64,000 nucleotides of DNA from Vicinamibacterales bacterium (GTDB taxonomy: Bacteria > Acidobacteriota > Vicinamibacteria > Vicinamibacterales > UBA8438), in contig OZ241898.1 of the NCBI GenBank assembly GCA_965203525.1, positions 1,984,176 through 2,048,175 on the forward strand, read 5' to 3'. The translations under genes were made by a program, and so were the position numbers. Positions 12,514 to 40,189 of the stretch are shown here, piece after piece; the stretch's first letter is position 1, and every line of letters starts with the position of its first letter. The notes under the pieces were generated by a model. The model did not search any database. It worked only from the letters and a program-made list of their open reading frames with translations, and was not told the DNA's origin.

Positions 12514-12516
12514 CGC

Positions 12517-17347: not shown

Positions 17348-19783
17348 GTGGTTGCCACCACCTCGTCCTCGTCGCGTCGCATGAGCGAAATCCTCGGTGT
17401 CGCCCTCTTCGCCGGGGCCCTCGTCTGGCTGGTTGCGCTGGCGACCTACGACACCGCCGACGCCGTCTGGTTCTTCCATCCCGACGGCGTGGCGCCGCCG
17501 GTCAACCTGGCCGGCCGCGTGGGCGCGTTCCTGGCCGAGCTCTCCTACCAGATCCTCGGCCTGACCGCGTTCCTCATCCCGATGCAGCTCGTCGTGCTCG
17601 GCTGGCATGCCTTCTGGTGCCGGCCGGTCGGCGCGGCGTACACGAAGCTGTTCGGTCTCGGCGTGATCGCGGGCTGCGGCGCGGGGTTCCTCAGCCTGGC
17701 GTTCGGCCTCCTCGCGGAGTCTCCCCGCCCCATCGACGCGGGCGGGTACCTGGGAGCGGCGCTGACCGGACTGCTGTCCGAGTACTTCAACCGGATCGGT
17801 TCGATCATCGTCATCCTGACCATCCTGTTCCTCACCGTCATGGTGACGACCCGGTTTTCGCCCGGTCAGCTCCTGGCCGCCTTCTGGCGCGGCCTGCGCG
17901 AGGCCGCGCGGACGCTGCGCGCGACGTTCGGCGACTGGTCGGCGCAGCGCCGGCGCGAGCGCCAGCGGCAGGACGTCCTGAACAAGCATCTGGCGAAGAC
18001 CGGCTCGTCGTCCGCCCGCACCGAGATTCTGGCCCGCAGCCAGGCGCCGGACCGCTGGCGGCGGAACGCGCCGCGGACGGCGGCGGCAGAGGAAGGAGAT
18101 CCGGCTCCGGAGCAGGCCGTCGACCCGGCCGGGGACGTCGAGTTCGATCCGGAACCGGCGTTCCAGCCCGCTCCGGAGCCGGAACCGGAACCCGCCCCGG
18201 AGCCGGTCTCCGCCCCCCCGCCCGCGATCACGGCGCCGCCGGAGGCCTTCGAGCCCCCGCCGCCGCCGCTGGCGCCGGAGCTGTCGATGCAGGAACGGCG
18301 GAGCCGCTACACCCCGCCCCCGATCTCGCTGTTCGATTCGCCGAAGGCGATGCAGACCTTCGACGAGCGCCAGCTCATGGACCGGGCGCACCTGCTCGAA
18401 GAGAAGTGCCGGGAGTTCTCGGTGGAAGGCTCGGTGGTCCAGATCCACCCCGGGCCGGTGGTGACCACGTTCGAGTTCAAGCCGGACGCCGGCGTCAAGT
18501 ACAGCCGCGTCACCGGCCTCGCCGACGACCTGTGCCTGGCGATGCAGGCCGAGTCGGTGCTCATCGAGCGCATCCCCGGCAAGTCGACCGTGGGCATGCA
18601 GATTCCGAACGCGGTGCGCGACCAGATCTCGCTGCGGGAGATGCTCCAGTCCGAGCCCTACGCGCAATCCTCGTCCAAGCTGACCCTCGCGCTCGGCAAG
18701 ACCATCCACGGCGAGCCGGTCGTCGCCGACCTCGCGTCCATGCCGCACCTGCTGATCGCCGGCGCCACCGGGACCGGCAAGTCCGTGGGGCTGAACGCGA
18801 TGCTGACCAGCATCCTGTTCCGGGCGACGCCCGAGGAGGTGCGCCTGATCCTGATCGACCCCAAGCGCCTCGAGCTCGGGATGTACGCCGACGTCCCGCA
18901 CCTGCTGACCCCGGTGGTCGTCGATCCGAAGCAGGCCAACAACGCGCTCCGCTGGGCGGTCCGGGAGATGGAGCAACGCTACAAGCTGCTCGCCGCCGAG
19001 GGCGTGCGCAACATCGGCCAGTACAACCGCAACGTGCGCCGGCAGCTCGAAGAGGACGGCGCCGGCGGCGCCGAGGCGGCGCCGGGCGGCGACGGCCGGG
19101 AAGCGGGGGATCCCGCGCCGCTGCCGTACGTCATCCTGGCCATCGACGAGCTGGCCGACCTGATGATGGTGGCGAGCAAGGACGTCGAGGAGTCGATCGC
19201 GCGCCTCGCCCAGATGGCGCGCGCCGTCGGCATCCACCTCATCCTGGCGACGCAGCGGCCGTCGGTGGACGTCATCACCGGGCTCATCAAGGCCAACCTG
19301 CCCTCGCGGATCGCGTTCCGCGTCTCCTCCAAGGTGGACTCGCGCACGATCATCGACGGCAACGGCGCCGAGCAGCTCCTGGGCAAGGGCGACCTGCTCT
19401 ACCTTCCGCCGGCCTCCTCCCGCTGCATCCGGCTGCACGGCCCCTACATTTCGGAGCGCGAGACCGCGCGCCTGTGCGGCTTCCTGCGCAAGCAGGGCGC
19501 GCCGGGGTACGACGAATCGATCACGGCCGACGAGAAGGCGCCGGAAGCGGCCCCGGCCGATCACGACGACCTCTACGACGAGGCGGCGCGGATCATCGTC
19601 GGCGCCGGACAGGCGTCGATCTCGTACCTCCAGCGGCGCCTCCGCATCGGGTTCAGCCGCGCCGCGCGGCTCGTCGACATGATGGAGGCGGACGGGCTGG
19701 TTTCGGCCGGGACCGCGGGCAAGCCGCGGGAGGTGCTGGTGCAGTCGGACTACTTCGAGCAGGTCGACGCGCAGCCCCGGTAG
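17348..19783 (+). CDS. ftsK: DNA translocase FtsK/SpoIIIE
   Basis: N-terminal TM helices, a Pro/Ala-rich linker, the motor domain (GATGTGKSVGLN; ILAIDELADLMM) and a C-terminal gamma winged-helix (ISYLQRRLRIGFSRAARLVDMME). Confidence 0.95.
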   Translation: MVATTSSSSRRMSEILGVALFAGALVWLVALATYDTADAVWFFHPDGVAPPVNLAGRVGAFLAELSYQILGLTAFLIPMQLVVLGWHAFWCRPVGAAYTKLFGLGVIAGCGAGFLSLAFGLLAESPRPIDAGGYLGAALTGLLSEYFNRIGSIIVILTILFLTVMVTTRFSPGQLLAAFWRGLREAARTLRATFGDWSAQRRRERQRQDVLNKHLAKTGSSSARTEILARSQAPDRWRRNAPRTAAAEEGDPAPEQAVDPAGDVEFDPEPAFQPAPEPEPEPAPEPVSAPPPAITAPPEAFEPPPPPLAPELSMQERRSRYTPPPISLFDSPKAMQTFDERQLMDRAHLLEEKCREFSVEGSVVQIHPGPVVTTFEFKPDAGVKYSRVTGLADDLCLAMQAESVLIERIPGKSTVGMQIPNAVRDQISLREMLQSEPYAQSSSKLTLALGKTIHGEPVVADLASMPHLLIAGATGTGKSVGLNAMLTSILFRATPEEVRLILIDPKRLELGMYADVPHLLTPVVVDPKQANNALRWAVREMEQRYKLLAAEGVRNIGQYNRNVRRQLEEDGAGGAEAAPGGDGREAGDPAPLPYVILAIDELADLMMVASKDVEESIARLAQMARAVGIHLILATQRPSVDVITGLIKANLPSRIAFRVSSKVDSRTIIDGNGAEQLLGKGDLLYLPPASSRCIRLHGPYISERETARLCGFLRKQGAPGYDESITADEKAPEAAPADHDDLYDEAARIIVGAGQASISYLQRRLRIGFSRAARLVDMMEADGLVSAGTAGKPREVLVQSDYFEQVDAQPR

Positions 19784-19826
19784 TCCGCCCGCAAGCAGCG
19801 CGGCGGCGGACGGCCGGCGGCGCAAT

Positions 19827-20010
19827 GGGACGATCAGCGGCCGGGGGCGCCAAGACTGAGCCCGACTCCGTCCCGCCTGGACCGACGTCGGCGGCGCAGG
19901 CGGGACGATCAGCGGCCGGGGGCGCCGAGGCCGACTCCGGCCCGCCTGGATCGGCGCCGACGACACGGGGACGATTCAGCGGCCGGGGGCGCCGAGGCCA
20001 AGCCGGGTCG
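19827..20010. repeat. Three tandem, degenerate copies (75 and 66 nt periods) of the 3' end of the small gene 19976-20224
   Basis: Units start at 19827, 19902 and 19968 with gggacgat(t)cagcggccgggggcgcc(a/g)ag... On the minus strand each carries ...GGCGCCCCCGGCCGCTGA, the last codons plus stop of the small ORF. Confidence 0.8.
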
Positions 20011-20224
20011 CGCTGCCGCCGGGGGGGCCTTCGACCGGCCCGCCGCGCGCCTTCCGCACCCCGATCAGGAGGCCGGCCAGCGACAGCCCGAGGAGGACCG
20101 CGACCAGGCCGAGCACGCCCACCACGGAGAAGGCGCCGAGCACCACGTCGATGACGGTCGTCTGCTCGGTGGTGGGTTCCACCACTTCGTAGACCAGCGG
20201 CGTAATCGGCTGCGGTTGGGCCAC
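19976..20224 (-). CDS. Small single-pass membrane protein, unknown function
   Basis: 82 codons with a GTG start 10 nt after the pepA stop and a central hydrophobic helix (VIDVVLGAFSVVGVLGLVAVLLGLSLAGLLIGV). Confidence 0.45.
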   Translation of the reverse strand: MAQPQPITPLVYEVVEPTTEQTTVIDVVLGAFSVVGVLGLVAVLLGLSLAGLLIGVRKARGGPVEGPPGGSATRLGLGAPGR

Positions 20225-20234
20225 GGAAGCAAGC

Positions 20235-21752
20235 CTACCAAGTCCGGTCGCCGACGGCCAACTCGGTCAGCGTGCGGACCATCACGCCGGTGGCGCCGGC
20301 CGCGGCGTCCTCGCGCGGCTTCTCCAGCCAGGCGGTGCCGGCGACGTCCAGGTGCGCCCAGGGCAGCTCCGCGGCGAACGCCTCGAGGAACGCCGCCGCG
20401 GTGCAGGCTCCCCCCTCGCGGCCCCCGACGTTCTTCAGGTCCGCCAGCTCCGAGCGCAACTGCTCGCGGTACTCCTCGTAGAGCGGCAGCGGCCACACCC
20501 GCTCGCCGGCGCGGGCGGCCGCCGCCTGCAGGACGCCGCTCCAGGCCGCCGGCCGGGCGAAGAGCCCGCTGGCCGCTCCCCCGAGCGCGATCACGCAGGC
20601 GCCGGTGAGCGTCGCGACGTCGACCAGATGGGTGGCGCCGAGCTCCCGCGCGTACCAGAGCGCGTCGCCGAGGATCAACCGGCCCTCGGCGTCCGTGTTC
20701 AGCACTTCCACCGTGGTCCCGCTGGCGCCGGTCAGGACATCGCCCGGCCGGATGGCGCGCCCGCCCGGCATGTTCTCCGCCATCGGCACGATGCCGAGGA
20801 CGCGGCGGGCGCCCCCCAGCGCCCCGATCGCGCGCATGGCGCCGACGACCGCCGCGCCGCCCGCCATGTCGCTCTTCATCCACTCCATGCCCGCCGCCGG
20901 CTTGATCGAGATCCCTCCGGTGTCGAAGGTCACCCCCTTGCCGACCAGCCCCAGCACCGGCTCGGCGGGCGCTCCCGGCGGCTCGTGGCGCATCACCAGC
21001 AGCCGGGGCGGCGCGGCGCTCCCCTGGCCGACGCCCAGCAGCAGCCCCATGCCGAGTCCGCGGATGGCCGTCTCGTCCAGCACCTCGGCGGCCACGCCCA
21101 CCTCCGCGACGGCCGCCGCCGACCGTTCCGCGAACTCCGCGGGAGGCAGCAGGTTGGACGGCTGGTTCGCGAGCTCGCGGGCCAGATTGGCCGCCGCGCC
21201 GATGGTCACCCCCCGTGCGACCGCCTTCGCCACGCCGGCGCCGCGGTTCCCCTCCGGCCACACGACGTCGCACGCCGCGGCCGCGCCGTCGGCCTCCGGT
21301 TCGCTCTTGTAGCGCAGGTCGGCGAAGCCGCCGGCGACGGCGCCCTCCCCCACCGCCTGGGCCAGCTCCTCCGGCTCCCCCGCGCCCCGGCAGACGAAGG
21401 CGAAGCGCGCCACGCGCCGCGCGCGGGCGGCCCGGCCCGCCACCGCCGCCGCTTCCCGCAGGCAGGCGGCGGGTCCGTCCGGTCCCGGCGGCGCGCCGAC
21501 CAGCAGCAGCCGCGGCGCGCGCCAGCCCTCCCCGGTCAGCGCCGTCTCGAACGTCTCCCGCCGCTTCCCCCGGAACGCGCCGGAGGCCCGGGCCTCTTCG
21601 AGCGCGCCGGCGGTGGCGGCGTCGAGGCCGGGCAGATCGGCCAGCGTGTCGGCGTCGGCGTCGCCCAGGACGGGGACGGCCAGCAGGTCGGCGTCGGCCG
21701 CCGCGGCGGGCGCGCCGCTGGCGCCGGCGGGTCCGGAAATCGGCGTCGGCAT
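20235..21752 (-). CDS. pepA: Leucyl aminopeptidase (M17)
   Basis: NTDAEGRLILGDAL signature and VGKGVTFDTGG. Start chosen at ATG 21752; the track ORF extends further upstream without support. Confidence 0.9.
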   Translation of the reverse strand: MPTPISGPAGASGAPAAAADADLLAVPVLGDADADTLADLPGLDAATAGALEEARASGAFRGKRRETFETALTGEGWRAPRLLLVGAPPGPDGPAACLREAAAVAGRAARARRVARFAFVCRGAGEPEELAQAVGEGAVAGGFADLRYKSEPEADGAAAACDVVWPEGNRGAGVAKAVARGVTIGAAANLARELANQPSNLLPPAEFAERSAAAVAEVGVAAEVLDETAIRGLGMGLLLGVGQGSAAPPRLLVMRHEPPGAPAEPVLGLVGKGVTFDTGGISIKPAAGMEWMKSDMAGGAAVVGAMRAIGALGGARRVLGIVPMAENMPGGRAIRPGDVLTGASGTTVEVLNTDAEGRLILGDALWYARELGATHLVDVATLTGACVIALGGAASGLFARPAAWSGVLQAAAARAGERVWPLPLYEEYREQLRSELADLKNVGGREGGACTAAAFLEAFAAELPWAHLDVAGTAWLEKPREDAAAGATGVMVRTLTELAVGDRTW

Positions 21753-21813
21753 CGGGCGATTATATCGGTCTACAATGGAGCCTGCCGTCCGGGGAAGGTT
21801 CGGGAGGTCAACC

Positions 21814-22272
21814 ATGCAGTGTTCATCCACCTGGCGTCGCCGCGCGTTCCTCGGCACGTCGCTCGCCGCGCTGTCGATCCTGCTCGCCGCCGGCCAGGCC
21901 GCCGACGGACGCGCCTGGTCCCGGCAGGGACCGGACGACGACCCGCGGCTGCGGCTGCGGGCCACCCCGCGCGTCGCCTTCGCGCCGGCCAGCATCCTGT
22001 TCGTCGGCCAGCTCCGGGGCGGCCCCGACGACAACGAGGAGCTCTACTGCGCGACCATCGAGTGGGACTGGGGCGACGACACGTACTCGGAGAGCACCCC
22101 GGACTGCGACCCGTTCGAGCCGGGCCGGACCTCGATCCGCCGGCGCTTCTCCGTCCGGCACACCTTCGACTACCAGGGCCGCTACGAGGTGCGCCTCAAC
22201 CTGAAGCGCCGCGACGACATCCTCATCTCGGCGCGCACCCGGATCGAGGTGCGCGGGAACCGGTTCCGGTAG
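21814..22272 (+). CDS. Hypothetical exported protein (possible Tat signal)
   Basis: ATG 21814 is preceded by GGGAGG. The N-terminus is WRRRAFLGTSLAALSILLAAGQA. No recognisable domain. Confidence 0.55.
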   Translation: MQCSSTWRRRAFLGTSLAALSILLAAGQAADGRAWSRQGPDDDPRLRLRATPRVAFAPASILFVGQLRGGPDDNEELYCATIEWDWGDDTYSESTPDCDPFEPGRTSIRRRFSVRHTFDYQGRYEVRLNLKRRDDILISARTRIEVRGNRFR

Positions 22273-22446
22273 GCGGTCGGCGGCGCACTGCCGAAGGCCC
22301 TGTGCAACTGTGCGCCGTCAGCACCGCGACCAGCGCCGAGCGCGCGCGCAGCAGGAAGACGGTCTGGAACGGCTGTTGGCGCGATTCCGGATCAATTCGG
22401 CGCAGGTCGCCGCGCTATCGCTCCGCCGACCCCTTCAACCATCCAT

Positions 22447-22481
22447 CTGAACACCGAGGACTTCTACCTCGGCCTGTTCAG
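22447..22481 (-). terminator. Hairpin downstream of the giant helicase gene (candidate terminator, no U-tract)
   Basis: Minus strand: CTGAACA-GG-CCGAGG tagaagt CCTCGG-TGTTCAG. This is 13 paired bases with a 2-nt bulge, 26 nt after the stop at 22507. Confidence 0.4.
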
Positions 22482-22506
22482 CGTGTCGATCGACCATCGC
22501 CCCTGT

Positions 22507-25500
22507 TTACTTCCCCACGGGAAACGTCGCGTCGAGCAGCGCCGCCGCCGCCCGCCGGTCGAGCAGACTCGCGGCGAACTGGGTATCGGCCGTCAGCAGA
22601 CAGCCGTGGCATGCACGATCGCAGTCGTCGTTCCTGCAATCGAGAATCTTCCGAGCGAGTCCGGCGATTCGACCGAGCTCGTGCTGCAGGATGGTCGTGT
22701 AACCGGTGCCGGCGGACGACGCATCGAACAGGAAACCCGAGCGCGTCACCAGGTCCTCGCCGGTCCTGCTCTGCGCGGCGGCGACGCCCATCTCCCGTTC
22801 GTCCACGCCGAGCAATCGAGTCACCCCGCCGCGCAACGCCACCGCCAGTGAATAGACCGCAGCCTGCGGCGGGTTGCCGTAGATTTGCAGCTCGAAGACG
22901 TCCGTGCGGCTGGAGCAGCCCAGATTGGCGTTTCTCTTCACGGCCCACGGCTGGTCGCTCCCCTCACAGATCGATGTCCCGGTCCGTTTGCGTCCGCCGC
23001 GCAGACGCGAATGGCGGTCGCCCAGGGGATTGCCAAGTCCGAACTCCCGCTCCGGCGCTGCCCGACCGCAACGCAGACAGACGGCGTAGCCCTTCCCACC
23101 CGGGCCGCCGTTGCCGTGGAAGATGTGCCCGTCCTCCGTGTATCGGAAGCGCCCGCGGGTCGGATCCGGGAACGACACCCAGTGGCTCGTCGGGCAGCTC
23201 ACCCAGGGTTCGTTCACCGGCAGGTACGTCGCCGTCGTCACGTCGTTGTGCGGCTGGCGCTGGAAGTCCACCGCGAATCCAGCCGGCTCGATGAACACGT
23301 ACGTCTCGACGTTGTCCGCTCCGCACACGTCGCATCCTGCCTGCGAGCCCGCGCGGTCACCGGTAGCGCCACAGCGGCGGCAACGCCACGCAGAGCGGAT
23401 CGACTGGATCTCGCGGACGCCGTCCGCGTCGGCGGGCAGGCGCCAGTTGAGCGTCACGCCGTCCGACCGGTGGACGCGTCCATCGACGACCACGTCGGCG
23501 CCCGGCGCATAGTCCCGAATGGCGCCCGGCGCCTCGCGGGTGGGAAAACCAGCCCGCGGTCCGAAGGCTTCGTCCCGCGTCGGGGCTTCCCGTTCCCGCC
23601 GGCGCAAGTCCGCTTTCGACGTCGTCACGAAACTGACGATTCCGGTGGGGAAACCGTGGCCGGGCAGTACTCCTCTGCGCACCATTTCGCCCAGGAGGTA
23701 CTCGCCGCGATGACGTTCGAGCTGCCTGCTCACGGCGAGGAACGCCGGGTTCTTCACGTGGCCCGGCGCACCCTCAAACCACGCGGCGTCGGTTTTGAGG
23801 GCATCGAGTGCGTTCGTCCACTCGGTCCCGGCCTTCTCGACCGCGGCCGCCGCCTCTTGCAGCAGCTTGTCGATCTCCTCGCCGTCGAGGGCGGTGCGCG
23901 CCACGAGACGGCGGAGCCCACGGGCGACGTCCTCATCGCCGGACGCCGCCTTCAGGCACCACACCCGGAACCGGGCCGCTGGCGACTGCGCGGCGCCCTC
24001 CGACTCGAAGAACCATCCCGCTTCCAGACGATGGGCGTTGGAGCTGTCGAGGAAGCGCCCCAGCAAGAGCGCGTTGACGTGCCGCTGGACCAGCCGCCGG
24101 CTGTCGAGCCCGACGCGCGGCGGGCTGATCGAAGCATCGAACGGCCAGCGCGGGTTCTTGAAGACTTCCACGCCGTGCGGCGTGTTCCTGCAAAGCGTCA
24201 GCGCGAGGGAGCTGCCTTCGCCGCGTCGCCCGGCACGTCCCGCCCGCTGGCGGTAGTTCGCGGCGTGCGGCGGAGGATTGCTCATCATCACGGCGGCCAG
24301 ACCGCCGATGTCGATGCCCATCTCCATCGTCGTGGAACAGCTCAGGACGTTCATCGCACCGGCCTTGAACAATCCCTCCTGCTGTCTCAGACGCTGGCCG
24401 CTGATCTGCGCCGAATGCTCGCCGACCGCGAAGTACGGACTCATGGCCACCGCGCGGTCGTTCAGGTTGGACCACAGCCCCCGGGCGCGGGCGTCTCTGA
24501 CGTCAGGGTCGTCGTTCAGCCATTCGATCACGGTCGCCGTGGAGAGCGAACCGCCCTTCTCGTCCCGCCAGAACGGGTACGGCAACCGCGGCATGCGGAT
24601 CTCCTCGCAACGGTCGTCGTCGCCGTGGAGCGGCGTGTAGGGCGACCGGCCGGCGAGCGTCGTGTCGAGCATGCGCCGCGTGAAGGGACACACGCGCAGA
24701 TCCCGCGCCTCCTCCAGCACGCAGGCGTCAGCCAGGCGAAAGAGGTAGCCGTGCTCGACCTGCCGCAGATGCGGCAACACGACCGTCCATGCCGAGCGCA
24801 GACACAGCTCGACCGCATCACGGTGCACAGCGTCCTTCAGATCCAGCCCGAAGGCGCGACAGAGCACGTCCAGTACGACCGCACGGTTGCCCCCGGCGCG
24901 TGCGCGCGGCCACAACGTCTGCCCCCGCGCGAGCCGGTCCCGGAAATCCGGTCCCTGCACGTAGCTTCGGTACATCCGGGTGCCCATCCACTGGAGATAC
25001 TCTTCCGGTATGTCGGTGGCGCCCCGCGCGCGCAGCACGAAGTCGATCACGAGCTTGACGAACCTCGGCCACTCGTCCCGCGGAGCTCCGAGGGGACCGG
25101 TCCACGCCGCCGGCGTCAGGTCGGCCGCCCGCTTCTCGATATCGGGATACCGCAAAGCAACCAAACCGAGCGTCTCGGCCGAGTTCATCCGCTTGGGACG
25201 GCGGAAGAACTCGCGGAACAGGCAGAACTCCGCGTACTCCGTCGCCGGAATGTCCACACCGCTCAGGCGCCAGTACTCGGCGCGCATCCTTCCGACGTCG
25301 ATGCCGTTGGCGAGTTGCGACACGGCGTCCCGCCAGGAAAGGCGTCCCAACGGCGCGTCCAACGACTCCGCCTTCGCCGTCTCCAGGCTGTTTTTCTTCT
25401 CTTTCAGGATGGCCCGGAGGGGCGGCGAACCCGATGCGACCTTCTCCAGCTCGGCCACCTCGCCCGTGAGCCGCTGGACATCGTCCTCCGACGCGCCAGC

Positions 25501-27534
25501 GCGTCTTCGCGCCGCTGCGATGCCGTGCAGCAATTGGCTGCGTACGTAGTTTCGCTCCGATTCCTGCTGGAGCCTGACCGCCAGCCGCGCCGACCCCTGC
25601 CGGGAGTCGCTGAATGCGAGCAATCGCCGACCGCCGAACGGGACGTCGTTCGACTGCTCCGCCGGAGGCGTGTGCTCCAGCACCGTCGGGGTGACGGTCG
25701 ACAGAAGAAACGGCGCCCCCATCCGCAATGGCCAAAACAGAGAATCCCTCCTCGACTCGCGTTCGCCGCAGCGCCGACACCGCAATGGACCGGCCTCGTC
25801 TTCCGGCGCAGCGACCGAGACGCAGCCGGGCGCCGACGAGAACAAGACATCCCAAGTGTTGGCGCCCAACGCCACGCTTTCGGTGTCGACACCGATGCTC
25901 GTGATCAAGCGGCGCTCGGCGGGCTGGACCATCGGCGCTTCGTCGCTCGCTTCTCCGGCGCCGTCTTCGGTTTCCGGCGCATCGACTTCGAGCTGGAACT
26001 CATCGACCGCCGACTGCGCCGCGCGCGGCCGCAGCGTCGTCACGCCCGCATCCGGGTCGTTGCGCTCGTCAGCCGCCAGATACACCTCCCCGCAGGCGCG
26101 GCACTGCACAATCTCGTAGACCGGGTGCTCGCAGTGGCGGCAGAAGTCCCGGGGGACCGTGTGAATGGCGCCGAGCGCCCACTCGCCGCCCAGGCCCCGC
26201 GGGCAGGCCGGATTCGCGCATGCCCACAGACCGGCCTGTGTGCGGCAGAACAGGTGCCCGCGAAGCGGCAGAAAGACCTGGTCACCGCGCCGCGCCGTCG
26301 TGCACAGGTCGATCAGCCGCAGGAGCCTGTCGACCGTGGCTTCGGAACGCCACCGGCGGCGGACGTCGGAAAGCGCGGCCACGTTGTTGGGTGACGAGGC
26401 GAACAAGCCGCGGAGCCGTCTCGCCTCGCGACTAGCGACGAGACGCGAAAACCTCTCCTCGGGAGACAGCGTCCGGAGATCGTCGACGTCGAGCGGCGCC
26501 GCGTCCGTCGCCGCGGGCAGGTCCGGTACGTCCCGCGCGCCGGCGACGACGTGCACGCTCGGCGGCGGCGCGCCCGACACGTCGCACAAGAAACGGCGCA
26601 ACGCCTCGTGTTCCTTCCGACCACCGAGCGTGGCCGACGTGGCGACGAACCGCACGTCGCACGGCTCGACCCCGAACCGGTGCAGGACGCGCCGGATGAG
26701 CAGCGCCATCTCCGCGGCGCGTGAACCGATGTAGGTGTGCGCCTCGTCCAGCACGATCCAGCGCAGTGTCCCCGGCGACCCGGCGATGATCGGCGCATCG
26801 GCGTCGCGAACCAGCATGTATTCCAGCATCGTCGCGTTGGTCACGAGGACAGGTGCCGGATCCTCACGCAACGCCTGCCGCGTGCGTTGCTCCGCCGGGG
26901 ACGCATCGCGCAGTTTGTGAGCAGGCAGCGTGTCCGGCGTCTCGCCGTTGTACAGACAGAACCGGATGTCGCCGCCGAACGCCGACGACCACGCGCGCAG
27001 GCGTTCGCGCTGACTGTTGATCAGCGCGTTCAACGGGTACAGAAACAGGGCGCGCACCCCGGTGAGACGCCCGCGGTCGGTGCACTCACGGGCGAGCTGA
27101 TCGAGTATCGGCACGAGGAAGCACTCGGTCTTCCCCGACCCGGTTCCGCTCGTGACCAGTACCGACTGGGCGGGCGCTTGGCCCAGCAACCGCCAGCAGC
27201 GCAGTTGGTGTTCGTACGGGCGCCAGTCGCGGCCGAAGCGGTAGTCGGCGCAGTCCGCGGGCGGGCTGTCCATCGCTTCCACGAGCCGGGGCGTGAGCGT
27301 GCAGGCCTCGGCGAGATCGGCCATCGTTTCCCGCGCAAGGCGCCAGCCGAACGTCGCCTCGAAGATCGGGTCGGCGAGCAGCGCGCCGTCGCTGCCCGCG
27401 GGCGCCTCGAACGTGTCGATCAAGAAGCGCCGGAGCTCCGGCGACCGCACGGCCAGTTGGCTCGACAGCGCACGCGAGGAACGCTGCGAGAGATCGCGAA
27501 CGACGTCGGCAAACGAAAGCGGCTGTTCAGTCAT
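22507..27534 (-). CDS. druE: Giant SF2 DEAH-box helicase with C-terminal Cys-cluster (DUF1998/MrfA-Zn-like) region; DruE-like
   Basis: 1675 aa with Walker A VTSGTGSGKTECF, LDEAHTY, ATSATLG, GIDIGGL and QRAGRAGRRG. Multiple CxxC pairs are present, including C-terminal CLRCGR... and CDRACHGC. ATG 27534 overlaps the upstream stop by 8 nt. The family call rests on architecture and context, not on a database search. Confidence 0.6.
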   Translation of the reverse strand: MTEQPLSFADVVRDLSQRSSRALSSQLAVRSPELRRFLIDTFEAPAGSDGALLADPIFEATFGWRLARETMADLAEACTLTPRLVEAMDSPPADCADYRFGRDWRPYEHQLRCWRLLGQAPAQSVLVTSGTGSGKTECFLVPILDQLARECTDRGRLTGVRALFLYPLNALINSQRERLRAWSSAFGGDIRFCLYNGETPDTLPAHKLRDASPAEQRTRQALREDPAPVLVTNATMLEYMLVRDADAPIIAGSPGTLRWIVLDEAHTYIGSRAAEMALLIRRVLHRFGVEPCDVRFVATSATLGGRKEHEALRRFLCDVSGAPPPSVHVVAGARDVPDLPAATDAAPLDVDDLRTLSPEERFSRLVASREARRLRGLFASSPNNVAALSDVRRRWRSEATVDRLLRLIDLCTTARRGDQVFLPLRGHLFCRTQAGLWACANPACPRGLGGEWALGAIHTVPRDFCRHCEHPVYEIVQCRACGEVYLAADERNDPDAGVTTLRPRAAQSAVDEFQLEVDAPETEDGAGEASDEAPMVQPAERRLITSIGVDTESVALGANTWDVLFSSAPGCVSVAAPEDEAGPLRCRRCGERESRRDSLFWPLRMGAPFLLSTVTPTVLEHTPPAEQSNDVPFGGRRLLAFSDSRQGSARLAVRLQQESERNYVRSQLLHGIAAARRRAGASEDDVQRLTGEVAELEKVASGSPPLRAILKEKKNSLETAKAESLDAPLGRLSWRDAVSQLANGIDVGRMRAEYWRLSGVDIPATEYAEFCLFREFFRRPKRMNSAETLGLVALRYPDIEKRAADLTPAAWTGPLGAPRDEWPRFVKLVIDFVLRARGATDIPEEYLQWMGTRMYRSYVQGPDFRDRLARGQTLWPRARAGGNRAVVLDVLCRAFGLDLKDAVHRDAVELCLRSAWTVVLPHLRQVEHGYLFRLADACVLEEARDLRVCPFTRRMLDTTLAGRSPYTPLHGDDDRCEEIRMPRLPYPFWRDEKGGSLSTATVIEWLNDDPDVRDARARGLWSNLNDRAVAMSPYFAVGEHSAQISGQRLRQQEGLFKAGAMNVLSCSTTMEMGIDIGGLAAVMMSNPPPHAANYRQRAGRAGRRGEGSSLALTLCRNTPHGVEVFKNPRWPFDASISPPRVGLDSRRLVQRHVNALLLGRFLDSSNAHRLEAGWFFESEGAAQSPAARFRVWCLKAASGDEDVARGLRRLVARTALDGEEIDKLLQEAAAAVEKAGTEWTNALDALKTDAAWFEGAPGHVKNPAFLAVSRQLERHRGEYLLGEMVRRGVLPGHGFPTGIVSFVTTSKADLRRREREAPTRDEAFGPRAGFPTREAPGAIRDYAPGADVVVDGRVHRSDGVTLNWRLPADADGVREIQSIRSAWRCRRCGATGDRAGSQAGCDVCGADNVETYVFIEPAGFAVDFQRQPHNDVTTATYLPVNEPWVSCPTSHWVSFPDPTRGRFRYTEDGHIFHGNGGPGGKGYAVCLRCGRAAPEREFGLGNPLGDRHSRLRGGRKRTGTSICEGSDQPWAVKRNANLGCSSRTDVFELQIYGNPPQAAVYSLAVALRGGVTRLLGVDEREMGVAAAQSRTGEDLVTRSGFLFDASSAGTGYTTILQHELGRIAGLARKILDCRNDDCDRACHGCLLTADTQFAASLLDRRAAAALLDATFPVGK

Positions 27535-30500
27535 GGTTCGGGATGTCGAGGTCGACACCGAGGATTCGGCCGAGGCCGGCGACGTACGCGGCGTCGAACC
27601 ACTCGGGCGCGTGTGACCGGAGCAGTTTCGTCGCATGAACCAGCCGGCGCGACACGCGAGCGCCCTCCGACGCCGCGAACGCAGCACCGATCGGGGCGTC
27701 CGTGAGTGGACGCCGGAATCCAACGCGCTGGCAGTCTGCCCAGACCGCGTCCTTCCCTGGCGATTCCCGCAACAGCGCAATCTCGGCGGCCCAATCGTCC
27801 CGGTCCGGCCCGGCAGGCCAACGGAAGTCACTGCCGGCTCTCAACAAGAACTGGTACGGACCTTCGGCGCCAGACAATCCGTTGAACGCCTCGTGTAGCG
27901 GAGGGGTTGCAGACCCCTGATAGGCGATCCGGCGGCCGGAAATTGCTTCGTCAGCGAAGTACTCCAACGGGCTCAAGCCCGGACAGAAGCGCGACGCCTC
28001 CGCCGCCACTTGATGGAGCCGCTCATCAGCCCGCTGCCGCACCTCGTCCGCAGCGAAGACAGCGACCTCCTCCAGTTCGGTGCGAATCGCCCGGTGCGTG
28101 CCGGTCATTTCCTCGCGCCACACCCGAACCGGAACGAGCAGCCACGTGAACGGCAACTCGTGCTCGAGCCGCCAGATCCTCGCGCGCGCCTCTTCCCGCG
28201 GAGTCCGCAGCAGCAACCGGACCAGCGCGGCAGGGTTGCCCGACAGACAGTCCAACGCATCGAACGTCGTGGCCGGCAACCCGCGGCTCACGTCGAGAAG
28301 GTCGGCCAGGTACTCCCAGTTCTCGTCGCCGCCGCCTTCGACCATGTCTTGCAGGATCCGTCTCATGGCGGCGATTCGAGCCTCCATGTCCGGGACCGAC
28401 GAGGCGTCCGCGAGAGAACGCGCCTCCGCGGCGTCGAGCGGCGCCCGGTCGCTCGGGTCCAGGACGAAGGGGCGGGCGAAGTACTGATCGCCGGATCGCG
28501 CAAGCACGATCCGGGTCTGCTGTCGAAACGCCGACTCCGGGATCTTCCAGTCTCCCTCCGCGCCGTCGTCCCCGGCAGGTTCGAGCGGCGTCCGCCCAAG
28601 GCCGGGAGTCTCCAGACCGAACGCCTCGAAGGTCACGGGCGCGCCGTCCGGCACGCAACGAACCGGGACCGAACAGATCGACGCGTCGGAAACCTTGACG
28701 TCGCACGCGAATCTGCGTACGACTGTTCGCTCTTCGGCGAAACCGCCAGAAGTCAGTTCGAGATGGATCCGGGCATCGAGCCGCTTCGTGGCTGCGAACA
28801 GCGATTCGAGCGCATCGTGGACCAGGACCAGCGGTAACTCCGAAACGCCGTCGCCGATCTTCGGCAGTGCGATGTCGAAGTGGGCCGCGGCCTGCATCCG
28901 CTCATCGAGATCGCTGGCGCGCAACTCCCCGACGAGGCGAAAGGTGTCGCTCGCCTGCGGCGAAATCGCCAGCGCCCGCCACCCGTACAGCGATTCCACC
29001 GACAGCGCACGACGGCGGTCGGCATCCTCGTGTTCCGGGTGTACGAACCGGGCGCCGCGGCCTGGAAACGGCACGGTCACGGGCAGGGTCGATCCGTTCG
29101 GCCAACGCGTCACCAATTCCACGTGTGAAGGCGGGCCCGTCCGCCTGCCCGTCCGCCCGTCTCCTGCGACGGCGACGCGGTCCGGTGCGAAGCGCACGGT
29201 GACGCGCAGGTGATCGGCCTGCCTCTCGCTTTCGACGTCGACGTGCGGGTGTTCGCAGGCGATGTCGAGTGACGCGCCTCTGATATCCACGAAACCGCGA
29301 GTCGGTTCCCGTCCTGGTACGACCTTCGCGCCGAAGTCCGCGCCCGCCAGGCAGATCTTCGACAGGAACACGGTCTCGCCATCAACCTCTCGCCGGACCC
29401 GCCATACCCCTGGGCTGTCGAGATTCCGAAACCATCCATCACCGCGCTCCGCGCGCCAGGAGACCTGGGCGGCAGGAACCCGACGCCACGCTCCGTCGGG
29501 CTCGATGGAAGACAGTGACGGCTGGTCGTGGTAGACGGGCGCCGGCGCCTCGAAATCGAAACAGCGCTTGCCAGTGAGACGATGCTCGAACTGTCTCTCC
29601 TGCTCCTGCGCCGTTCGTATCCTGCAGGTTCCGGCTGGCGTATCGATCCTGACGTCCCCTTCGACGTCGAACATCACGCGGCCGGTGATCGGCTGCGTCT
29701 CCCAACGGCGGCAGTCGGGATGCCGGAGAAGCACCGGAGCCGTCTCGTCGCGGCACGCAACCGCGACGCGCCGGAAGCGGGTGCGGACCGAGCCTTCGGC
29801 GTAGAGATCGAGCCGGACCTCGTCGTCGTCCGTAGCGGCGAACACCCAGGGCAGCTCGTCGGCAGGCGCCGCGCCTCCCCGAGGCGCGAAGCTGTCCCCG
29901 GTCCGGCGTCCGGCCTGGAGGAACCAGCGGATCTCCCGGTCGGCGACGGCCGCCAGATCCCCGGGCTCGGCAAGCACGCCGGAGAACACGACCTCGTCAC
30001 CTGCGACCCGCCCGTTGGCTATCGGCGTGGGGCGGTTCCCATCGACGCGCAGTTGGAATCGATTGGGCAGGTCCCCCTGCTCGATACCGATCAGCCGCGC
30101 TACGCCCGCCGCGGGCATGCGTCGCGGCACACGCGGCTCGACGACGAACCTCCGGCCGGCAGCCGCGTCGGTGATGTAGCGGAGCACCTGGAACTCTCCG
30201 GCCTCCGTGCTCTCCCCCGCGGCGGCGTCGCGCAGCAGCGAATCGATCAATCTTCGCGCCTGCCCGTCCTCGATGTCGATCGGCATCCGCGACCGCCATT
30301 CGGGAGTCTGCCTGTCCAGGACCGCAACCGGATCGTCCTGCGATCCGACGTCCCGCAGCTCCCAGATCTGATCCATGACCTCGGCACAGAGGCGGTAGAC
30401 CGGCTCCTGGCGCAGCGAGCGCGGCAGGTGCGAGCGGAGTGGTTCCGCGAGTTCGTAGCCATCCTCGACCACTCGGCGGAAAAGGCGGTACTCTCGCAGC

Positions 30501-30940
30501 AGCGCCCGCAGAAAACGGCGCACGTTCGAGTGCTGGCTCGATACCAAACGCAGCGGAAGTCCGCCCTGACAGGCGCAGGTGCCGAGGTAGCGGACGCTCG
30601 CACCGAAAACAACGGGTCTGACACGCCACCAGCGCCAAGCGTTCCGCAGTGGCTCGTAGAGTGCCGGGAACGGCGCCTCGCAACGGATGGAGTCGAGCAA
30701 CGGCTGCCATGCCCAGGAACCGCCGTCGTAGTGCCGCCGCCACCACTCGGCGGCATAGACGGCGAAGACTCGGCCGCCCGCGCCGGGATCACGCTGGGGG
30801 TGCCACCCGGCAAGCACGTCACGCGCCTCCTCGAAGCGTTCGGTCGAACACCGGTACGCATAGAGGGGCCGCGCGTCGGGATCGGAGAGTCCGACGGCCC
30901 CCAACAGACTCGACAACCACGCACGGGGTGTGACGGTCAT
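27527..30940 (-). CDS. Large (1137 aa) protein with no recognisable motifs, translationally coupled to the helicase; DruH-like candidate
   Basis: ATG 30940 is preceded by GGGGAGGAAC, and the ORF is uninterrupted to 27527. The CDS call is solid. The DruH assignment is by position and size only. Confidence 0.45.
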   Translation of the reverse strand: MTVTPRAWLSSLLGAVGLSDPDARPLYAYRCSTERFEEARDVLAGWHPQRDPGAGGRVFAVYAAEWWRRHYDGGSWAWQPLLDSIRCEAPFPALYEPLRNAWRWWRVRPVVFGASVRYLGTCACQGGLPLRLVSSQHSNVRRFLRALLREYRLFRRVVEDGYELAEPLRSHLPRSLRQEPVYRLCAEVMDQIWELRDVGSQDDPVAVLDRQTPEWRSRMPIDIEDGQARRLIDSLLRDAAAGESTEAGEFQVLRYITDAAAGRRFVVEPRVPRRMPAAGVARLIGIEQGDLPNRFQLRVDGNRPTPIANGRVAGDEVVFSGVLAEPGDLAAVADREIRWFLQAGRRTGDSFAPRGGAAPADELPWVFAATDDDEVRLDLYAEGSVRTRFRRVAVACRDETAPVLLRHPDCRRWETQPITGRVMFDVEGDVRIDTPAGTCRIRTAQEQERQFEHRLTGKRCFDFEAPAPVYHDQPSLSSIEPDGAWRRVPAAQVSWRAERGDGWFRNLDSPGVWRVRREVDGETVFLSKICLAGADFGAKVVPGREPTRGFVDIRGASLDIACEHPHVDVESERQADHLRVTVRFAPDRVAVAGDGRTGRRTGPPSHVELVTRWPNGSTLPVTVPFPGRGARFVHPEHEDADRRRALSVESLYGWRALAISPQASDTFRLVGELRASDLDERMQAAAHFDIALPKIGDGVSELPLVLVHDALESLFAATKRLDARIHLELTSGGFAEERTVVRRFACDVKVSDASICSVPVRCVPDGAPVTFEAFGLETPGLGRTPLEPAGDDGAEGDWKIPESAFRQQTRIVLARSGDQYFARPFVLDPSDRAPLDAAEARSLADASSVPDMEARIAAMRRILQDMVEGGGDENWEYLADLLDVSRGLPATTFDALDCLSGNPAALVRLLLRTPREEARARIWRLEHELPFTWLLVPVRVWREEMTGTHRAIRTELEEVAVFAADEVRQRADERLHQVAAEASRFCPGLSPLEYFADEAISGRRIAYQGSATPPLHEAFNGLSGAEGPYQFLLRAGSDFRWPAGPDRDDWAAEIALLRESPGKDAVWADCQRVGFRRPLTDAPIGAAFAASEGARVSRRLVHATKLLRSHAPEWFDAAYVAGLGRILGVDLDIPNHD

Positions 30941-31151
30941 GTTCCTCCCCGAAACGCGCAGTGCGGGCCTTCTCGCGGCCAATCACGCGGCCTGAGTCGC
31001 GTCCCTCCGACGGCGTCGCCCGGTGACGTCAAGGATACCGTCCACGTCAAGTTTCCGGCCTGGTATCCTGGTCCGGTCGATAGCCGGCGGCCATCGGGCC
31101 ATCCGGGCATCGTCGGTCGCTGCCCGCACCAGGGATGAGAGGCATGCGCAG

Positions 31152-31427
31152 ATGACGACCTGGCACTTCACGCTGATCGTCGACGGCCCGGACGTTCAGA
31201 GCGGAACGACGGTCGACGCGCTGTACGAAACGGGATGCGACGACGCGCTGATCGGCCGGGCCGACGGTGTCCAGTACATCGAGTTCGATCGCGAAGCGGC
31301 GGGTCTCGTCGAAGCCGTTCTGTCGGCGGTTGCCGACGTCGAGCGGGTCGCCGGGGTCAAGGTCGTGCGGATAGCAGACGCCGGACCGGCGTCGATGACC
31401 AGCCTGCGCGCCCTGGCCGGCTTGTGA
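31152..31427 (+). CDS. Small hypothetical protein (91 aa)
   Basis: MTTWHFTLIVDGPD...GCDDALIGRADGVQYIEFDREA... is a compact alpha/beta-looking protein. It is divergent from the giant operon. Its last 16 codons are duplicated at 40908-40956. Confidence 0.55.
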   Translation: MTTWHFTLIVDGPDVQSGTTVDALYETGCDDALIGRADGVQYIEFDREAAGLVEAVLSAVADVERVAGVKVVRIADAGPASMTSLRALAGL

Positions 31428-31442
31428 CGACCGGGCCGGGAA

Positions 31443-33833
31443 ATGACGAGCACGGGTGGCCGCGCCCGGGGCCTCCTCCGCCGGACGCTTGGACGGCAGC
31501 CCGCGGTGTCGCTGGCGACCACGGCGGCGCTGATCGCCGGAATCGGCGTCGCAGCGGCGGTTGCCGGCTTTCTCGACTCGTTGAACACACCGCCGCGCTG
31601 GACGGCGCGCGTGCCGGACCCGAACATGCTGGTTCGTGTGTCGCCGGTGCGGAACTACGGGTCGTACACGGCGATCGGCCCGCGCCTCCGAACCCTCGAC
31701 GTCGCCGTGTACCGGCGCGTCACGGCCGGCACCGGCCGCGGGCCCTTCGCGGCGCCGCTGCAACTGGAGTGCGTCAGCCCGGCATACCTGGCGCTGCTCG
31801 GCGTGCGGCCGTTCGCCGGGCGGGACTTCGATGCCCGGGACGACGTCGAGGGCGGGCCGCCGACCGTGGTGCTGGCGCATCACTTCTGGATGCGTCGGTT
31901 CGGGGGCGATCCCGCCGTGCTCGGCACCATGATGCAGGTCGACGATCGGCTGCACACGATCATCGGCGTCGGCCCCCCGGACTTCGGAGGCGTGAACTCG
32001 CCGCCGGCCGACGCGTGGACGCTGTTGGCGGCCTCTCCGAATTTCTGCGACGCGTCGGGGCGGCCGATCCTCGACCAGGGCGCGTGGCTGCAAACCGTCG
32101 GCCGCGTGCGGCCGGGATTCACGGTGGCGCACGCCGACGCCGAGGTGGCGGCGCTGTTCGCGGCCGACGCGGAGTCGGCGCGGAGGCTCGGCCGCGGAGT
32201 CGTGGAGCCGTTGTACGGCAGGCGCGCCGCCCACGGGTCGCCCGCGGGGCGGGTCGGCCGGTTCCTGGCCGCGGGTGTCGTGTTCATGCTGCTGGCGGTG
32301 TGCGTGAACGTCTCGCTGGTGCGCTCGCTGCACGTGGCGGACTGCCGGGACGCCCTCGCCGTTCGACGTCTACTCGGGGCGACGCGTCTGCGCCTGGGCT
32401 GGGTGCTGTGGGTCGAAACGCTGCTTCTGGCCGCCGCGTGCGTGCCGCCGGCGGCGATCGTCGCGCTGTGGACCGCGTGGACGCTGGAGGCGTTCTTCCC
32501 GATCGGATCCGTGGAGGCGGTACTGAGCCCGAGGGGCCTTGCGGCGCTGACGGCCATCGCACTGGCCGTCGGAGGCCTCGGCGGCGCGGCCCCGGCCGTG
32601 GCCGGCGCCCGTACGGCGTTGCGGTCCGCCTGGGGAACAAGCATGCCGGCCGGGACGCGGCCGTCGCTCGGCCGCGATGCGCTGCTGGTGAGCCAAGTGG
32701 CGGTAGCCCTGGTCCTGATCATGGTGGCGCAGCTCTTCGTGCGCAGCACGTCCGAGATCCGGCGGGGACTCGGTTTCGACCTCGACGGCGTCGCCGTGCT
32801 CACCGCCGACCTCGAACGCGCCGGATTCGGGAGCGCGGACAGGCTGTCCACGTTCCACCTCCTGGCGGAGCGGGTGGTCCGCCTCCCGCACGTCGAGGCG
32901 GCGGCGATCGCGTCGCAATCGCTGCTGGATCCTGACGACTCGCACCTGATGCTGGGAGTGACGGCGCCGGGCTCGTTCGGAAGCGTCGTCATGTCGACGT
33001 TCAACGCGGTGTCACCGCCCTACTTCGACGTGGTCGGCACCCGCCTCGTGCGGGGGCGGGCGTTCACCCGGGAGGATGCGGCCGGCAGCCGGCCCGTGAT
33101 GATCGTCAGCGACAGTCTGGCCCGACGCCTCTGGCCGGGCCGCGACGCGACCGGCCTCTGTGCGTTCGTCGGTAACGCGGGCTGCGTGGACGTCGTCGGC
33201 GTCAGCGAGTCCCGCCGGCCTGGAGCGGTGCGGTACCACGAGGAAGAGTTCTTCGTGCCCCTGGCGCAAGCGTCCCGCTACGGATATGGACGTGGATACG
33301 CCCGCGCGCTCTTCGTTCGCCCGAAGGATGCCGGGGACGAGAGCCTGGCCGCCATCGCCGCCGCCGTTCGCGGCGCGGTTCCCGATCTGCCGTTCGTGTC
33401 AGTGGCGCGTCTGTCCGACAGGGCCGACGCCGAGATGCGCTCCTGGCGCCTCGGGATCCGCATGTTCGGTCTGTTCGGAGGCGTCGCCGTGCTGCTGGCC
33501 GGCATCGGGGTCTACGGATCGCTGGCAGGCGCCGTGCGCCGGCGCACACCGGAAATCGCCGTCCGGATGGCGCTCGGCGCCCGGCCCGCGGACATCGTGC
33601 GATTGATGCTGCGCCGCAACGCGATGGTGCTCGCGGCGGGCATGGCGCTCGGCGGCGCCGCGCTTCTCGTCGTCGCTCCGCTGCTGCGTGCGCGGCTGTT
33701 CGGCGTGGTCCCGACCGACGGACCGTCGCTTGCCGCCGCCTGCGGCGCGGTCGCCGTCAGCGTATCGCTGGCGGTCGCCGCCCCGATCGCGCGGGCGGTG
33801 CGCGTGGATCCGATGGCGGCGCTTCGACGTTGA
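31443..33833 (+). CDS. ADOP-family duplicated ABC-type permease (MacB/FtsX-like, two FtsX domains)
   Basis: 796 aa with an N-terminal TM, a large periplasmic domain and an FtsX 4-TM bundle, twice. The C-terminal ...VRVDPMAALRR is typical of the FtsX/MacB family. No ATPase gene is adjacent. Confidence 0.8.
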   Translation: MTSTGGRARGLLRRTLGRQPAVSLATTAALIAGIGVAAAVAGFLDSLNTPPRWTARVPDPNMLVRVSPVRNYGSYTAIGPRLRTLDVAVYRRVTAGTGRGPFAAPLQLECVSPAYLALLGVRPFAGRDFDARDDVEGGPPTVVLAHHFWMRRFGGDPAVLGTMMQVDDRLHTIIGVGPPDFGGVNSPPADAWTLLAASPNFCDASGRPILDQGAWLQTVGRVRPGFTVAHADAEVAALFAADAESARRLGRGVVEPLYGRRAAHGSPAGRVGRFLAAGVVFMLLAVCVNVSLVRSLHVADCRDALAVRRLLGATRLRLGWVLWVETLLLAAACVPPAAIVALWTAWTLEAFFPIGSVEAVLSPRGLAALTAIALAVGGLGGAAPAVAGARTALRSAWGTSMPAGTRPSLGRDALLVSQVAVALVLIMVAQLFVRSTSEIRRGLGFDLDGVAVLTADLERAGFGSADRLSTFHLLAERVVRLPHVEAAAIASQSLLDPDDSHLMLGVTAPGSFGSVVMSTFNAVSPPYFDVVGTRLVRGRAFTREDAAGSRPVMIVSDSLARRLWPGRDATGLCAFVGNAGCVDVVGVSESRRPGAVRYHEEEFFVPLAQASRYGYGRGYARALFVRPKDAGDESLAAIAAAVRGAVPDLPFVSVARLSDRADAEMRSWRLGIRMFGLFGGVAVLLAGIGVYGSLAGAVRRRTPEIAVRMALGARPADIVRLMLRRNAMVLAAGMALGGAALLVVAPLLRARLFGVVPTDGPSLAAACGAVAVSVSLAVAAPIARAVRVDPMAALRR

Positions 33834-33858
33834 TCCCGAACGGAGAGAGGAGGCGACG

Positions 33859-38098: not shown

Positions 38099-38115
38099 AC
38101 TTTCGGTTATACCTC

Positions 38116-40183: not shown

Positions 40184-40189
40184 GGCGTC

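Follow-up and report, generated by a model that had tools for sequence, protein, structure and literature searches.

A probable type III Druantia anti-phage operon on a genomic island of a Vicinamibacterales bacterium

Described type III pairs and the druH-druE operon

Type III Druantia is a family of anti-phage systems that is already known and studied; type III systems without PLD domains have been described, one of which has been validated experimentally. By lengths and domains, the closest tested analogue of the locus considered here is the pair MSMEG_1253 (DruH, 1132 aa)/MSMEG_1254 (DruE, 1667 aa) of Mycolicibacterium smegmatis, which is reported to block circularization of phage DNA (Li & He 2026, PMC13316683). 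Further points of comparison are the Escherichia coli type III(-A) pair ECs_5259/ECs_5260 (YjiT/YjiV; PDB 9tu7-9tuc for DruE, 9tud for DruH; literature of Hu et al., Himpich et al. and Wu et al. 2026) and the Pseudomonas aeruginosa pair (Loeff, Chanez & Jinek 2026, 10.64898/2026.05.13.724313). We analysed a 64,000-nt stretch of DNA from a Vicinamibacterales bacterium (the window; ~72% G+C) and found that two adjacent, co-directional minus-strand genes, druH and druE, have the type III layout. Taken together with the mode of action proposed below, we consider it highly probable that they form a type III Druantia anti-phage system that is intact, was acquired horizontally and is carried as an operon on a 19.2-kb island. 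The operon has the following parts:

27527-30940, minus strand: druH, ATG start, 1137 aa, proximal gene of the pair
22507-27534, minus strand: druE, ATG start, TAA stop, 1675 aa, distal gene of the pair
27527-27534, minus strand: 8-nt stop/start overlap of druH and druE, ATGACTGA
30944-30950, minus strand: GGGGAGG, Shine-Dalgarno-like element 3 nt before the druH ATG
30941-31040, minus strand: druH leader of ~100 nt that moves with the cassette (shared nucleotide homology) and contains GGGGAGG
22447-22481, minus strand: hairpin 3' of druE (7+6 bp with a 2-nt bulge), beginning 25 nt past the druE stop

The distal protein is a large helicase of the DruE type. It matched PADLOC DruE3 models with 1868, 1390 and 943 bits, the first of these (PDLC00037) aligning protein residues 7-1671 with profile positions 5-1676 of 2055. 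The other PADLOC Druantia models gave 509 (DruE1), 347 (DruE2) and 330 bits (DruE4), and the remaining PADLOC matches (among them SngC, BrxH, DpdJ, DrmA at 34 bits, and Cas3) stayed below 100 bits. The best match in the PDB was the solved type III E. coli DruE, 9tu7 (E=0, 1122 bits), with residues 3-1667 aligned to 7-1716 of the 2108-residue chain; this core aligns end to end with the E. coli protein, the superfamily 2 (SF2) motifs and every Cys cluster included. As in P. aeruginosa DruE (PaDruE), the helicase core is MrfA-like and is joined by stalk, insertion and DUF1998 modules. Pfam found DEAD, Helicase_C and MZB (MrfA Zn-binding) domains, and nine CxxC-type pairs were counted. By these matches DruE is an SF2 DEAH helicase of the YprA/MrfA-like kind; it bears Zn-binding Cys clusters and finishes with a DUF1998/MZB module. 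An earlier note on this DNA, made from the sequence alone, had quoted a set of SF2 motifs and a CxxC/DUF1998-like C-terminus for the distal protein, and we located all of them:

26614-27210, minus strand: RecA1 of DruE, with Walker A GTGSGKTE at 27124-27147 and DEAH at 26737-26751
24220-24249, minus strand: RecA2 motif VI of DruE (motif search)
22597-22845, minus strand: MZB of DruE (Pfam)
DruE residues 130-137: GTGSGKTE
DruE residues 262-266: LDEAH
DruE residues 300-302: SAT
DruE residues 1096-1105: QRAGRAGRRG
DruE residues 1486-1491: Cys motif CLRCGR
DruE residues 1638-1645: Cys motif CDRACHGC

The proximal protein had appeared in the earlier note as one without recognizable motifs. It indeed had no match in the Pfam copy that we searched, but it is, by several comparisons, a full-length DruH of the YjiT/STY4851 family. 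Twelve PADLOC DruH3 models matched it (up to 233 bits), as did NCBIfam NF038336 (YjiT_fam, STY4851/ECs_5259), whose score over residues 8-1119 was 494 bits (cut-off 150), and the solved DruH 9tud (E=3e-46). The newer Pfam families YjiT_N and YjiT_2nd occur in its homologues, and YjiV_N in the partner proteins of these. For comparison with E. coli we took ECs_5259 (1119 aa) and ECs_5260 (2104 aa) of O157 Sakai together with the E. coli clade; hhalign aligned the DruH clade of the window with the E. coli clade over 1082 columns (probability 100%, E 2e-179). Within the C-terminal third, a single-sequence phmmer search against the PDB aligned 61 residues, and the comparison of that region rests on the profile-profile alignment by hhalign, as fast MAFFT was unreliable there. 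The similarity of the 1137-aa protein to DruH, which the earlier note had put forward, was thereby borne out by profile, PDB-sequence and hhalign comparisons alike.

An AlphaFold2 model of DruH, built with 46 homologues (pLDDT 84.2, pTM 0.65), falls into three parts and agrees with the published three-part DruH architecture, which it shares with E. coli DruH (EcDruH):

Residues 1-245, 30206-30940, minus strand: N-terminal helical domain of DruH
Residues ~250-830, minus strand: beta-rich immunoglobulin (Ig)-like array of DruH
Residues ~840-1132, 27545-28423, minus strand: C-terminal helical domain of DruH

A Foldseek search of this model against the PDB returned only low-TM arrays of Ig and fibronectin type III (FnIII) domains, because the library used (to 2026-04-08, without 9tud) predates the DruH entries.

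The DruE3, DruH3 and NF038336 scores, the matches to 9tu7 and 9tud, the hhalign alignment and the layout of the AlphaFold2 model together carry the family assignment. The earlier name 'Druantia III-like' was right about the type and too cautious in its 'like': by model scores this is a bona fide type III pair, which PADLOC or DefenseFinder would call without difficulty. PADLOC gave no system-level Druantia match among the other island open reading frames (ORFs) tested.

DruE stops directly after the DUF1998/MZB cysteines, at the equivalent of position 1716 of 2108 in E. coli DruE (EcDruE). Since the alignment to EcDruE ends there and the profile alignment ends at 1676 of 2055, the two C-terminal PLD-like domains of the type III-A (E. 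coli/Pseudomonas) architecture are absent. EcDruE, in contrast, has ~390 extra C-terminal residues (PLD1, PLD2). A scan of the island ORFs with Pfam and PADLOC found no PLD gene elsewhere on the island. The short form is shared by the whole DruE clade at 74-98% identity (~16 members from several genomes, all 1662-1690 aa). More distant homologues (47-51% identity) divide about equally into proteins of ~1650 aa and of ~2040 aa, short and long proteins are interleaved many times in a neighbour-joining tree, and the nearest outgroups of the clade are long (2059-2068 aa, 51% identity). A type III-like DruE branch (III-B) that mostly lacks the nuclease domain, with GIH50614.1 as representative, has been described in the Koonin-lab survey of YprA helicases (PMC12458937); the nuclease-less layout of DruE would fit that description, GIH50614.1 itself being outside our tree.

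The resemblance to M. smegmatis extends over the whole pair. There, too, druH precedes druE with overlapping stop and start, the proteins have near-identical lengths, DruE consists of DEAD, Helicase_C and DUF1998 without PLD domains, and the host is a high-GC soil bacterium. The two differ in phylum (Acidobacteriota here, Actinomycetota there) and in the overlap (17 nt in M. smegmatis, against 8 nt in the window). The E. coli pair has the same families and gene order, and lies in a Zorya II/Druantia III/ARMADA II array on a tRNA-integrated element, whereas the pair described here has no partner system.

A different origin of the pair has to be weighed, because the helicase core, the OB/DUF1998 module and the zinc clusters of DruE are held in common with MrfA/YprA of Bacillus subtilis (PDB 6znp, E=7e-23), the evolutionary parent fold of DruE, and DruE has weak domain-level matches to DpdJ, BrxH and DrmA. 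The genes might then encode a housekeeping repair helicase of the MrfA/YprA or Lhr type and a protein accessory to it, or might belong to a DISARM, ARMADA or Dpd system, and not serve Druantia defence. We regard this as extremely improbable and, by the model scores, effectively refuted. The MrfA-like model TIGR03817 gave 106 bits (105.7) against a cut-off of 874.1, the Lhr model NF007284 36 bits (36.5) against 1496, and DpdJ 66 bits against 800; DrmA covered the RecA2 region only. All of these are far below DruE3, in keeping with the expectation that the helicase is not of the MrfA, Lhr or DrmA type. MrfA itself is a repair factor of 751 aa with the exonuclease MrfB as its partner, and its match is confined to the core domains (83 bits). 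The partner protein here is DruH, not MrfB, DrmB or DrmC; the Pfam and PADLOC scan of the island ORFs found no methyltransferase, PLD or SNF2 gene, which upholds the earlier argument against DISARM; and the pair is accessory and mobile, as shown below. MrfA-like and Lhr helicases, DpdJ and DISARM were rejected on these grounds.

Neither ORF has a frameshift, and each is full length. Their overlap, re-derived exactly where the earlier note had placed it, reads CCG AAC CAT GAC TGA in druH over ATG ACT GAA in druE, and the identical 8-nt overlap is present in the gene calls of six other loci (labelled L083, L084, L085, L088, L089 and L090). Such an overlap implies a single transcript and probably translational coupling of druE to druH. 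The GGGGAGG that had been noticed before the first ATG was found, and in a six-way alignment of independent copies the ATG is kept in 6/6, a GGAGG-like element is present in most, and blocks of the leader are conserved; together, the element and the ATG support this start of druH. No sigma-70 consensus was found in the druH leader. The 13-bp hairpin reported after the second stop is real and folds well (−32.7 kcal/mol for its 91-nt context, z = −2.8). No U-tract follows it, and our terminator scan covered 30900-31500 only. It lies outside the sequence common to independent copies of the cassette and was rejected as a conserved cassette terminator; a terminator of this particular island is possible. 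The third-position GC of druH (0.80) and druE (0.84), against 0.90-0.96 for flanking core genes, is consistent with horizontal acquisition.

Functional residues and a possible mode of action

We compared DruH with the residues reported as functional in its homologues. In P. aeruginosa DruH (PaDruH), an N-terminal cleft with R22, K28 and E64 is required for defence and is reported as the site of a 3'-5' exonuclease (Loeff et al., 10.64898/2026.05.13.724313). By spacing, the probable counterparts in the window are:

30869-30871 / 30851-30853 / 30746-30748, minus strand: DruH triad R24 / R30 / E65

Of 46 diverse homologues, 43-45 keep R/R/E in the triad columns, as do 11/11 E. coli-clade sequences; the motif that holds the triad, R-x-LYAY-[RK] ... 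YAAE, is near-invariant in both sets. None of the retrieved proteins was a PaDruH with R22/K28/E64. The homologue P0042 has R23, K29 and E65, with spacings of 6 and 36 as in the published numbering, and because of this equality the reading of R24/R30/E65 as the counterparts of PaDruH R22/K28/E64 appears well supported.

The second published site behaves differently. The ATP/single-stranded DNA (ssDNA) pocket of EcDruH comprises Y670, N672, H689, Y733, D735, R1031, H1062, R1064 and K1067 (2026 E. coli studies), and these align by hhalign, in a divergent region where the alignment is less secure, with T666, R668, H687, T730, G732, W1041, V1073, F1075 and P1078 here, so that only H689 is kept, as H687. 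The pocket residues are confined to enterobacterial homologues of at least 48% identity, and in three lower-identity members of the E. coli clade (33-35%) the R1031 column is occupied by Trp, the residue that is W1041 here and near-invariant across the wider family. Since the pocket occurs only in enterobacterial DruH, with Trp elsewhere, the ATP switch looks like an enterobacterial speciality and the N-terminal triad like a family-wide feature.

Where the earlier note called the mechanism still unknown, it is now treated in five papers and preprints of 2026, with conflicting results. The DruE orthologues of E. coli and Pseudomonas load on exposed ssDNA and on DNA with a 3' tail or a fork, and their unwinding runs 3'->5'; homologous DruH binds or processes ssDNA and contacts DruE, and homologous DruH-DruE pairs stop circularization and replication of phage DNA (2026 studies). 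By analogy, DruE of the window would engage, after infection, ssDNA-containing intermediates of phage replication or recombination, or the cohesive ends of the phage genome, and unwind them with ATP. DruH would dock on DruE, its C-terminal helical domain against the DruE stalk, and would act on ssDNA through the N-terminal Arg24/Arg30/Glu65 cleft, the outcome being a block of phage genome circularization and replication. Any cutting of DNA would fall to DruH or to host nucleases, because DruE has no PLD module. Given the family assignment, we take a helicase that exposes or feeds ssDNA to the N-terminal cleft of DruH as the most likely mode, with about an even chance of being correct.

The loss of the PLD module need not be disabling. 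Deletion of both PLD domains from EcDruE left defence intact (10.64898/2026.05.12.722862), and the PLD-less DruH-DruE of M. smegmatis gave >10^4-fold protection (PMC13316683). The PLD pocket of PaDruE (D1740, D1917, R1918 and others), reported there as an essential nuclease, is missing here, so that the 'helicase-coupled nuclease' part of the Pseudomonas model cannot apply as such.

Several observations weigh against this picture of an intact, directly clearing system. In Pseudomonas, DruH is described as a 3'-5' exonuclease and the PLD of PaDruE as an essential nuclease (10.64898/2026.05.13.724313), in conflict with other studies, one of which found no DruH nuclease activity and dispensable PLDs (10.64898/2026.05.12.722862); for Wu et al. 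(2026), DruH is a dimer-dependent nickase and sensor. The M. smegmatis pair is reported to act by abortive infection with a toxic DruH (PMC13316683), as opposed to the non-abortive clearance seen in E. coli and Pseudomonas. R24/R30/E65 were mapped to PaDruH by motif spacing, not by the Pseudomonas sequence, and ATP gating cannot be assumed here, because the EcDruH pocket is not conserved. Finally, druE of a sister strain (L084, below) is broken by an IS256 element, so that the system is dispensable and can decay.

The M. smegmatis results also suggest a different mode altogether, in which the PLD-less pair is a toxin-antitoxin-like abortive module: a toxic, DNA-damaging DruH would be restrained by DruE and released by a phage tail or baseplate protein sensed through the Ig-like array, and the infected cell would be killed or arrested. 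In M. smegmatis, with the same architecture, DruH alone is toxic, DruE neutralizes it, defence is described as abortive, and the trigger is the minor tail protein Gp25 (PMC13316683). DruH is, moreover, similar to baseplate J-like proteins and associates weakly with a baseplate protein (Wu et al.), and regulation must differ from the E. coli model in a pair whose DruE has no nuclease module and whose DruH has no enterobacterial ATP pocket. In Pseudomonas and E. coli, however, DruH alone is not toxic and defence is non-abortive, while the unchanged phenotype after removal of the PLDs from EcDruE means that a missing PLD by itself implies no different mode. The sequence fits abortive infection and direct clearance alike. 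On balance we regard the abortive module as possible, though rather unlikely, and keep the feeding of ssDNA by DruE to DruH as our working model.

Genomic island and mobile cassette

The operon lies in an insertion into an otherwise syntenic chromosomal region. To the left are LexA, RNase J, FtsK and an M17 aminopeptidase (pepA), and to the right prephenate dehydrogenase, DAHP synthase, chorismate mutase and TrpA. A search of a genome collection with the aminopeptidase returned metagenome-assembled genomes of Vicinamibacterales (Acidobacteriota) at up to 86% identity in which the FtsK-pepA synteny is kept; DruE or DruH was present within 10 kb of pepA in 0/80 related species representatives. 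An actinomycete host, a first thought at 72% G+C, was rejected on these syntenic matches. In the closest relatives (L002, L004, L005, L008 and L010), window position ~22272 is joined directly to ~41492-41513, which defines ~22273-41500 as a 19.2-kb insertion. The earlier statement that the pair is accessory and lies in an IS-rich region was thus confirmed, the island being missing from the five closest relatives examined.

Copies of druH-druE occur in at least five other genomic contexts in Vicinamibacterales (L083, L085, L088, L089 and L090), where the close homologues have 74-93% protein identity and the cassette 75-94% nucleotide identity amid five unrelated neighbourhoods. The clearest case is L085:9909-18428, which is 93.6% identical in nucleotides to the window over 8.55 kb; it adjoins a restriction-modification gene of the Eco57I/BsuBI-PstI type and has no flanking transposase or recombinase, suggesting recent horizontal transfer of just druH and druE. 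L083 comes from the same genome as L002, which has no island at pepA. It has a split GmrSD (type IV restriction) upstream (7655-9741) and a ~1650-aa 'HTH upstream of double PIN' protein downstream (18980-23405), and its neighbourhood looks like a defence island with an uncharacterized giant protein. L088 and L089 lie among metabolic genes, and L090 beside an IS3-like element and a regulator of the M78-peptidase/helix-turn-helix kind. Across the other contexts, druHE has no conserved third gene at its side.

The limits of the cassette could be placed closely. Upstream, homology ends at window ~30989-31049 (~50-110 nt before the druH ATG) in 4/5 complete copies; in the most divergent copy, L088 (75% identity), it begins at 30912, ~30 nt inside druH. 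Downstream it ends at 22498-22523 in five other contexts, within ~15 nt of the druE stop, and the sequence beyond is unrelated. The mobile unit extends from ~100 nt upstream of druH to the stop codon of druE.

In the sister strain L084 (DruH 93% identical), the island is at the same site as in the window. Its druE region (L084:13395-21149) is cut into pieces of 709 aa and 1047 aa by an IS256-family element, and a second transposase gene of the same length (433 aa) lies just downstream of druE. The split looks like a natural inactivation of druE.

This broken copy bears on whether the window's own system might be a decaying or inactive remnant, like yjiT/yjiV of E. coli K-12, with the loss of the PLDs as a disabling truncation. 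Such decay would be in keeping with a DruE ~400 aa shorter than EcDruE and PaDruE, with the essential role of the PLD residue D1740 in PaDruE (Loeff et al.), and with an IS-rich island whose 93%-identical sister copy has been split, a second IS256 copy lying nearby. Against it stand the two full-length, frameshift-free ORFs and the end of DruE at a natural domain boundary, shared with ~16 clade members of 1662-1690 aa and, in about half of the distant homologues, with proteins of ~1650 aa interleaved with long ones. In addition, unrelated contexts share the cassette with nucleotide identities that reach 93.6%, and a PLD-less system is experimentally active in M. smegmatis (PMC13316683). We therefore consider a remnant very improbable and an intact system the better description.

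The remainder of the island consists of the following features, together with small ORFs without an assigned family:

22273-41500, either strand: genomic island of 19.2 kb, between the convergent 3' ends of a conserved 152-aa ORF beside pepA and of prephenate dehydrogenase
31023-33833, plus strand: small ORF and duplicated orphan permease of the ADOP family (462 bits with TIGR03434, whose cut-off is 622)
34734-36035, minus strand: IS256 transposase (family match)
~36.1-37.66 kb, plus strand: IS66-like transposase (family match)
38524-39903, plus strand: IS1380 transposase (family match)
40244-40783, minus strand: coiled-coil protein of 179 aa and lower G+C, with apolipoprotein-like and HpsJ-like matches

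The small ORF directly upstream of the ADOP permease (134 aa, or 91 aa as called) has a 49-bit PADLOC match to PDC-M06B, and the two genes are divergent from druH. ADOP-family permeases are typical acidobacterial genes. None of the five other cassette contexts has this pair, which was rejected as a part of the defence system and is probably unrelated island cargo. The protein at 40244-40783 gave 17 bits with PADLOC DruG2 (E=5e-4) and similarly weak matches to coiled-coil regions of ZorA, LeoB and LmuB, which look like coiled-coil composition and not homology.

The metagenome contig L001 (99.5% identity) carries the same island without the IS256/IS66-like and IS1380 insertions, the window blocks 34701-38115 (IS256 and IS66-like) and 38420-40178 (IS1380) being missing from it; the island of L084 also lacks the window's IS256, IS66-like and IS1380 elements. 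The IS elements of the window are recent insertions into the island. At the right island edge (41495-41507), 314 bp of L001 (3513-3826) are absent from the window, and with them the 5' part of a 210-aa ORF that the gene calls of L001 and L084 contain; the window may have lost this segment by deletion, or L001 may have gained it by insertion. A comparison of the island ends for att-like repeats gave only a shared 7-nt GAACCGG, probably by chance, and neither an integrase nor a tRNA turned up in the parts examined.

Outside the island, ten large ORFs had only generic ATPase and helicase matches in PADLOC, with no second defence system among them. In the syntenic core, 1056-3770 (plus strand) matches a PDC-M37B/DolB/TRIP13-type AAA+ domain and 10402-12516 (minus strand) a Cas3/PbeA/DpdF-type helicase C-terminal domain, and both are probably housekeeping genes for an ATPase and a helicase. 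Just downstream of druHE in L090, a 1620-aa protein without a Pfam match is encoded at L090:14239-19101 (minus strand), before the IS3-like element.

Implications for the type III family

What the locus adds is modest: an intact example of type III Druantia in Vicinamibacterales, a precisely bounded two-gene cassette that moves between sites, and the distinction between an E. coli ATP/ssDNA pocket that is not family-wide and an N-terminal triad that is. As a natural variant, a minimal PLD-less pair from a third phylum, it would be a clean test case for the disagreement of 2026 over the nuclease and the PLD domains.

We also entertain, as a speculation that is less likely to be right than wrong, that the lineage with PLD-less DruE and Trp-pocket DruH is a mechanistically distinct type III sub-type, in which the DruH cleft would be the only nuclease, DruE would serve as motor and regulator, no ATP-competition switch would operate, and the bare cassette would be spreading among Vicinamibacterales. 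If so, the ancestral core of the family would be a helicase that feeds or licenses DruH, to which the PLD domains and the ATP pocket were added in particular lineages, and this would help to reconcile the conflicting models of 2026.

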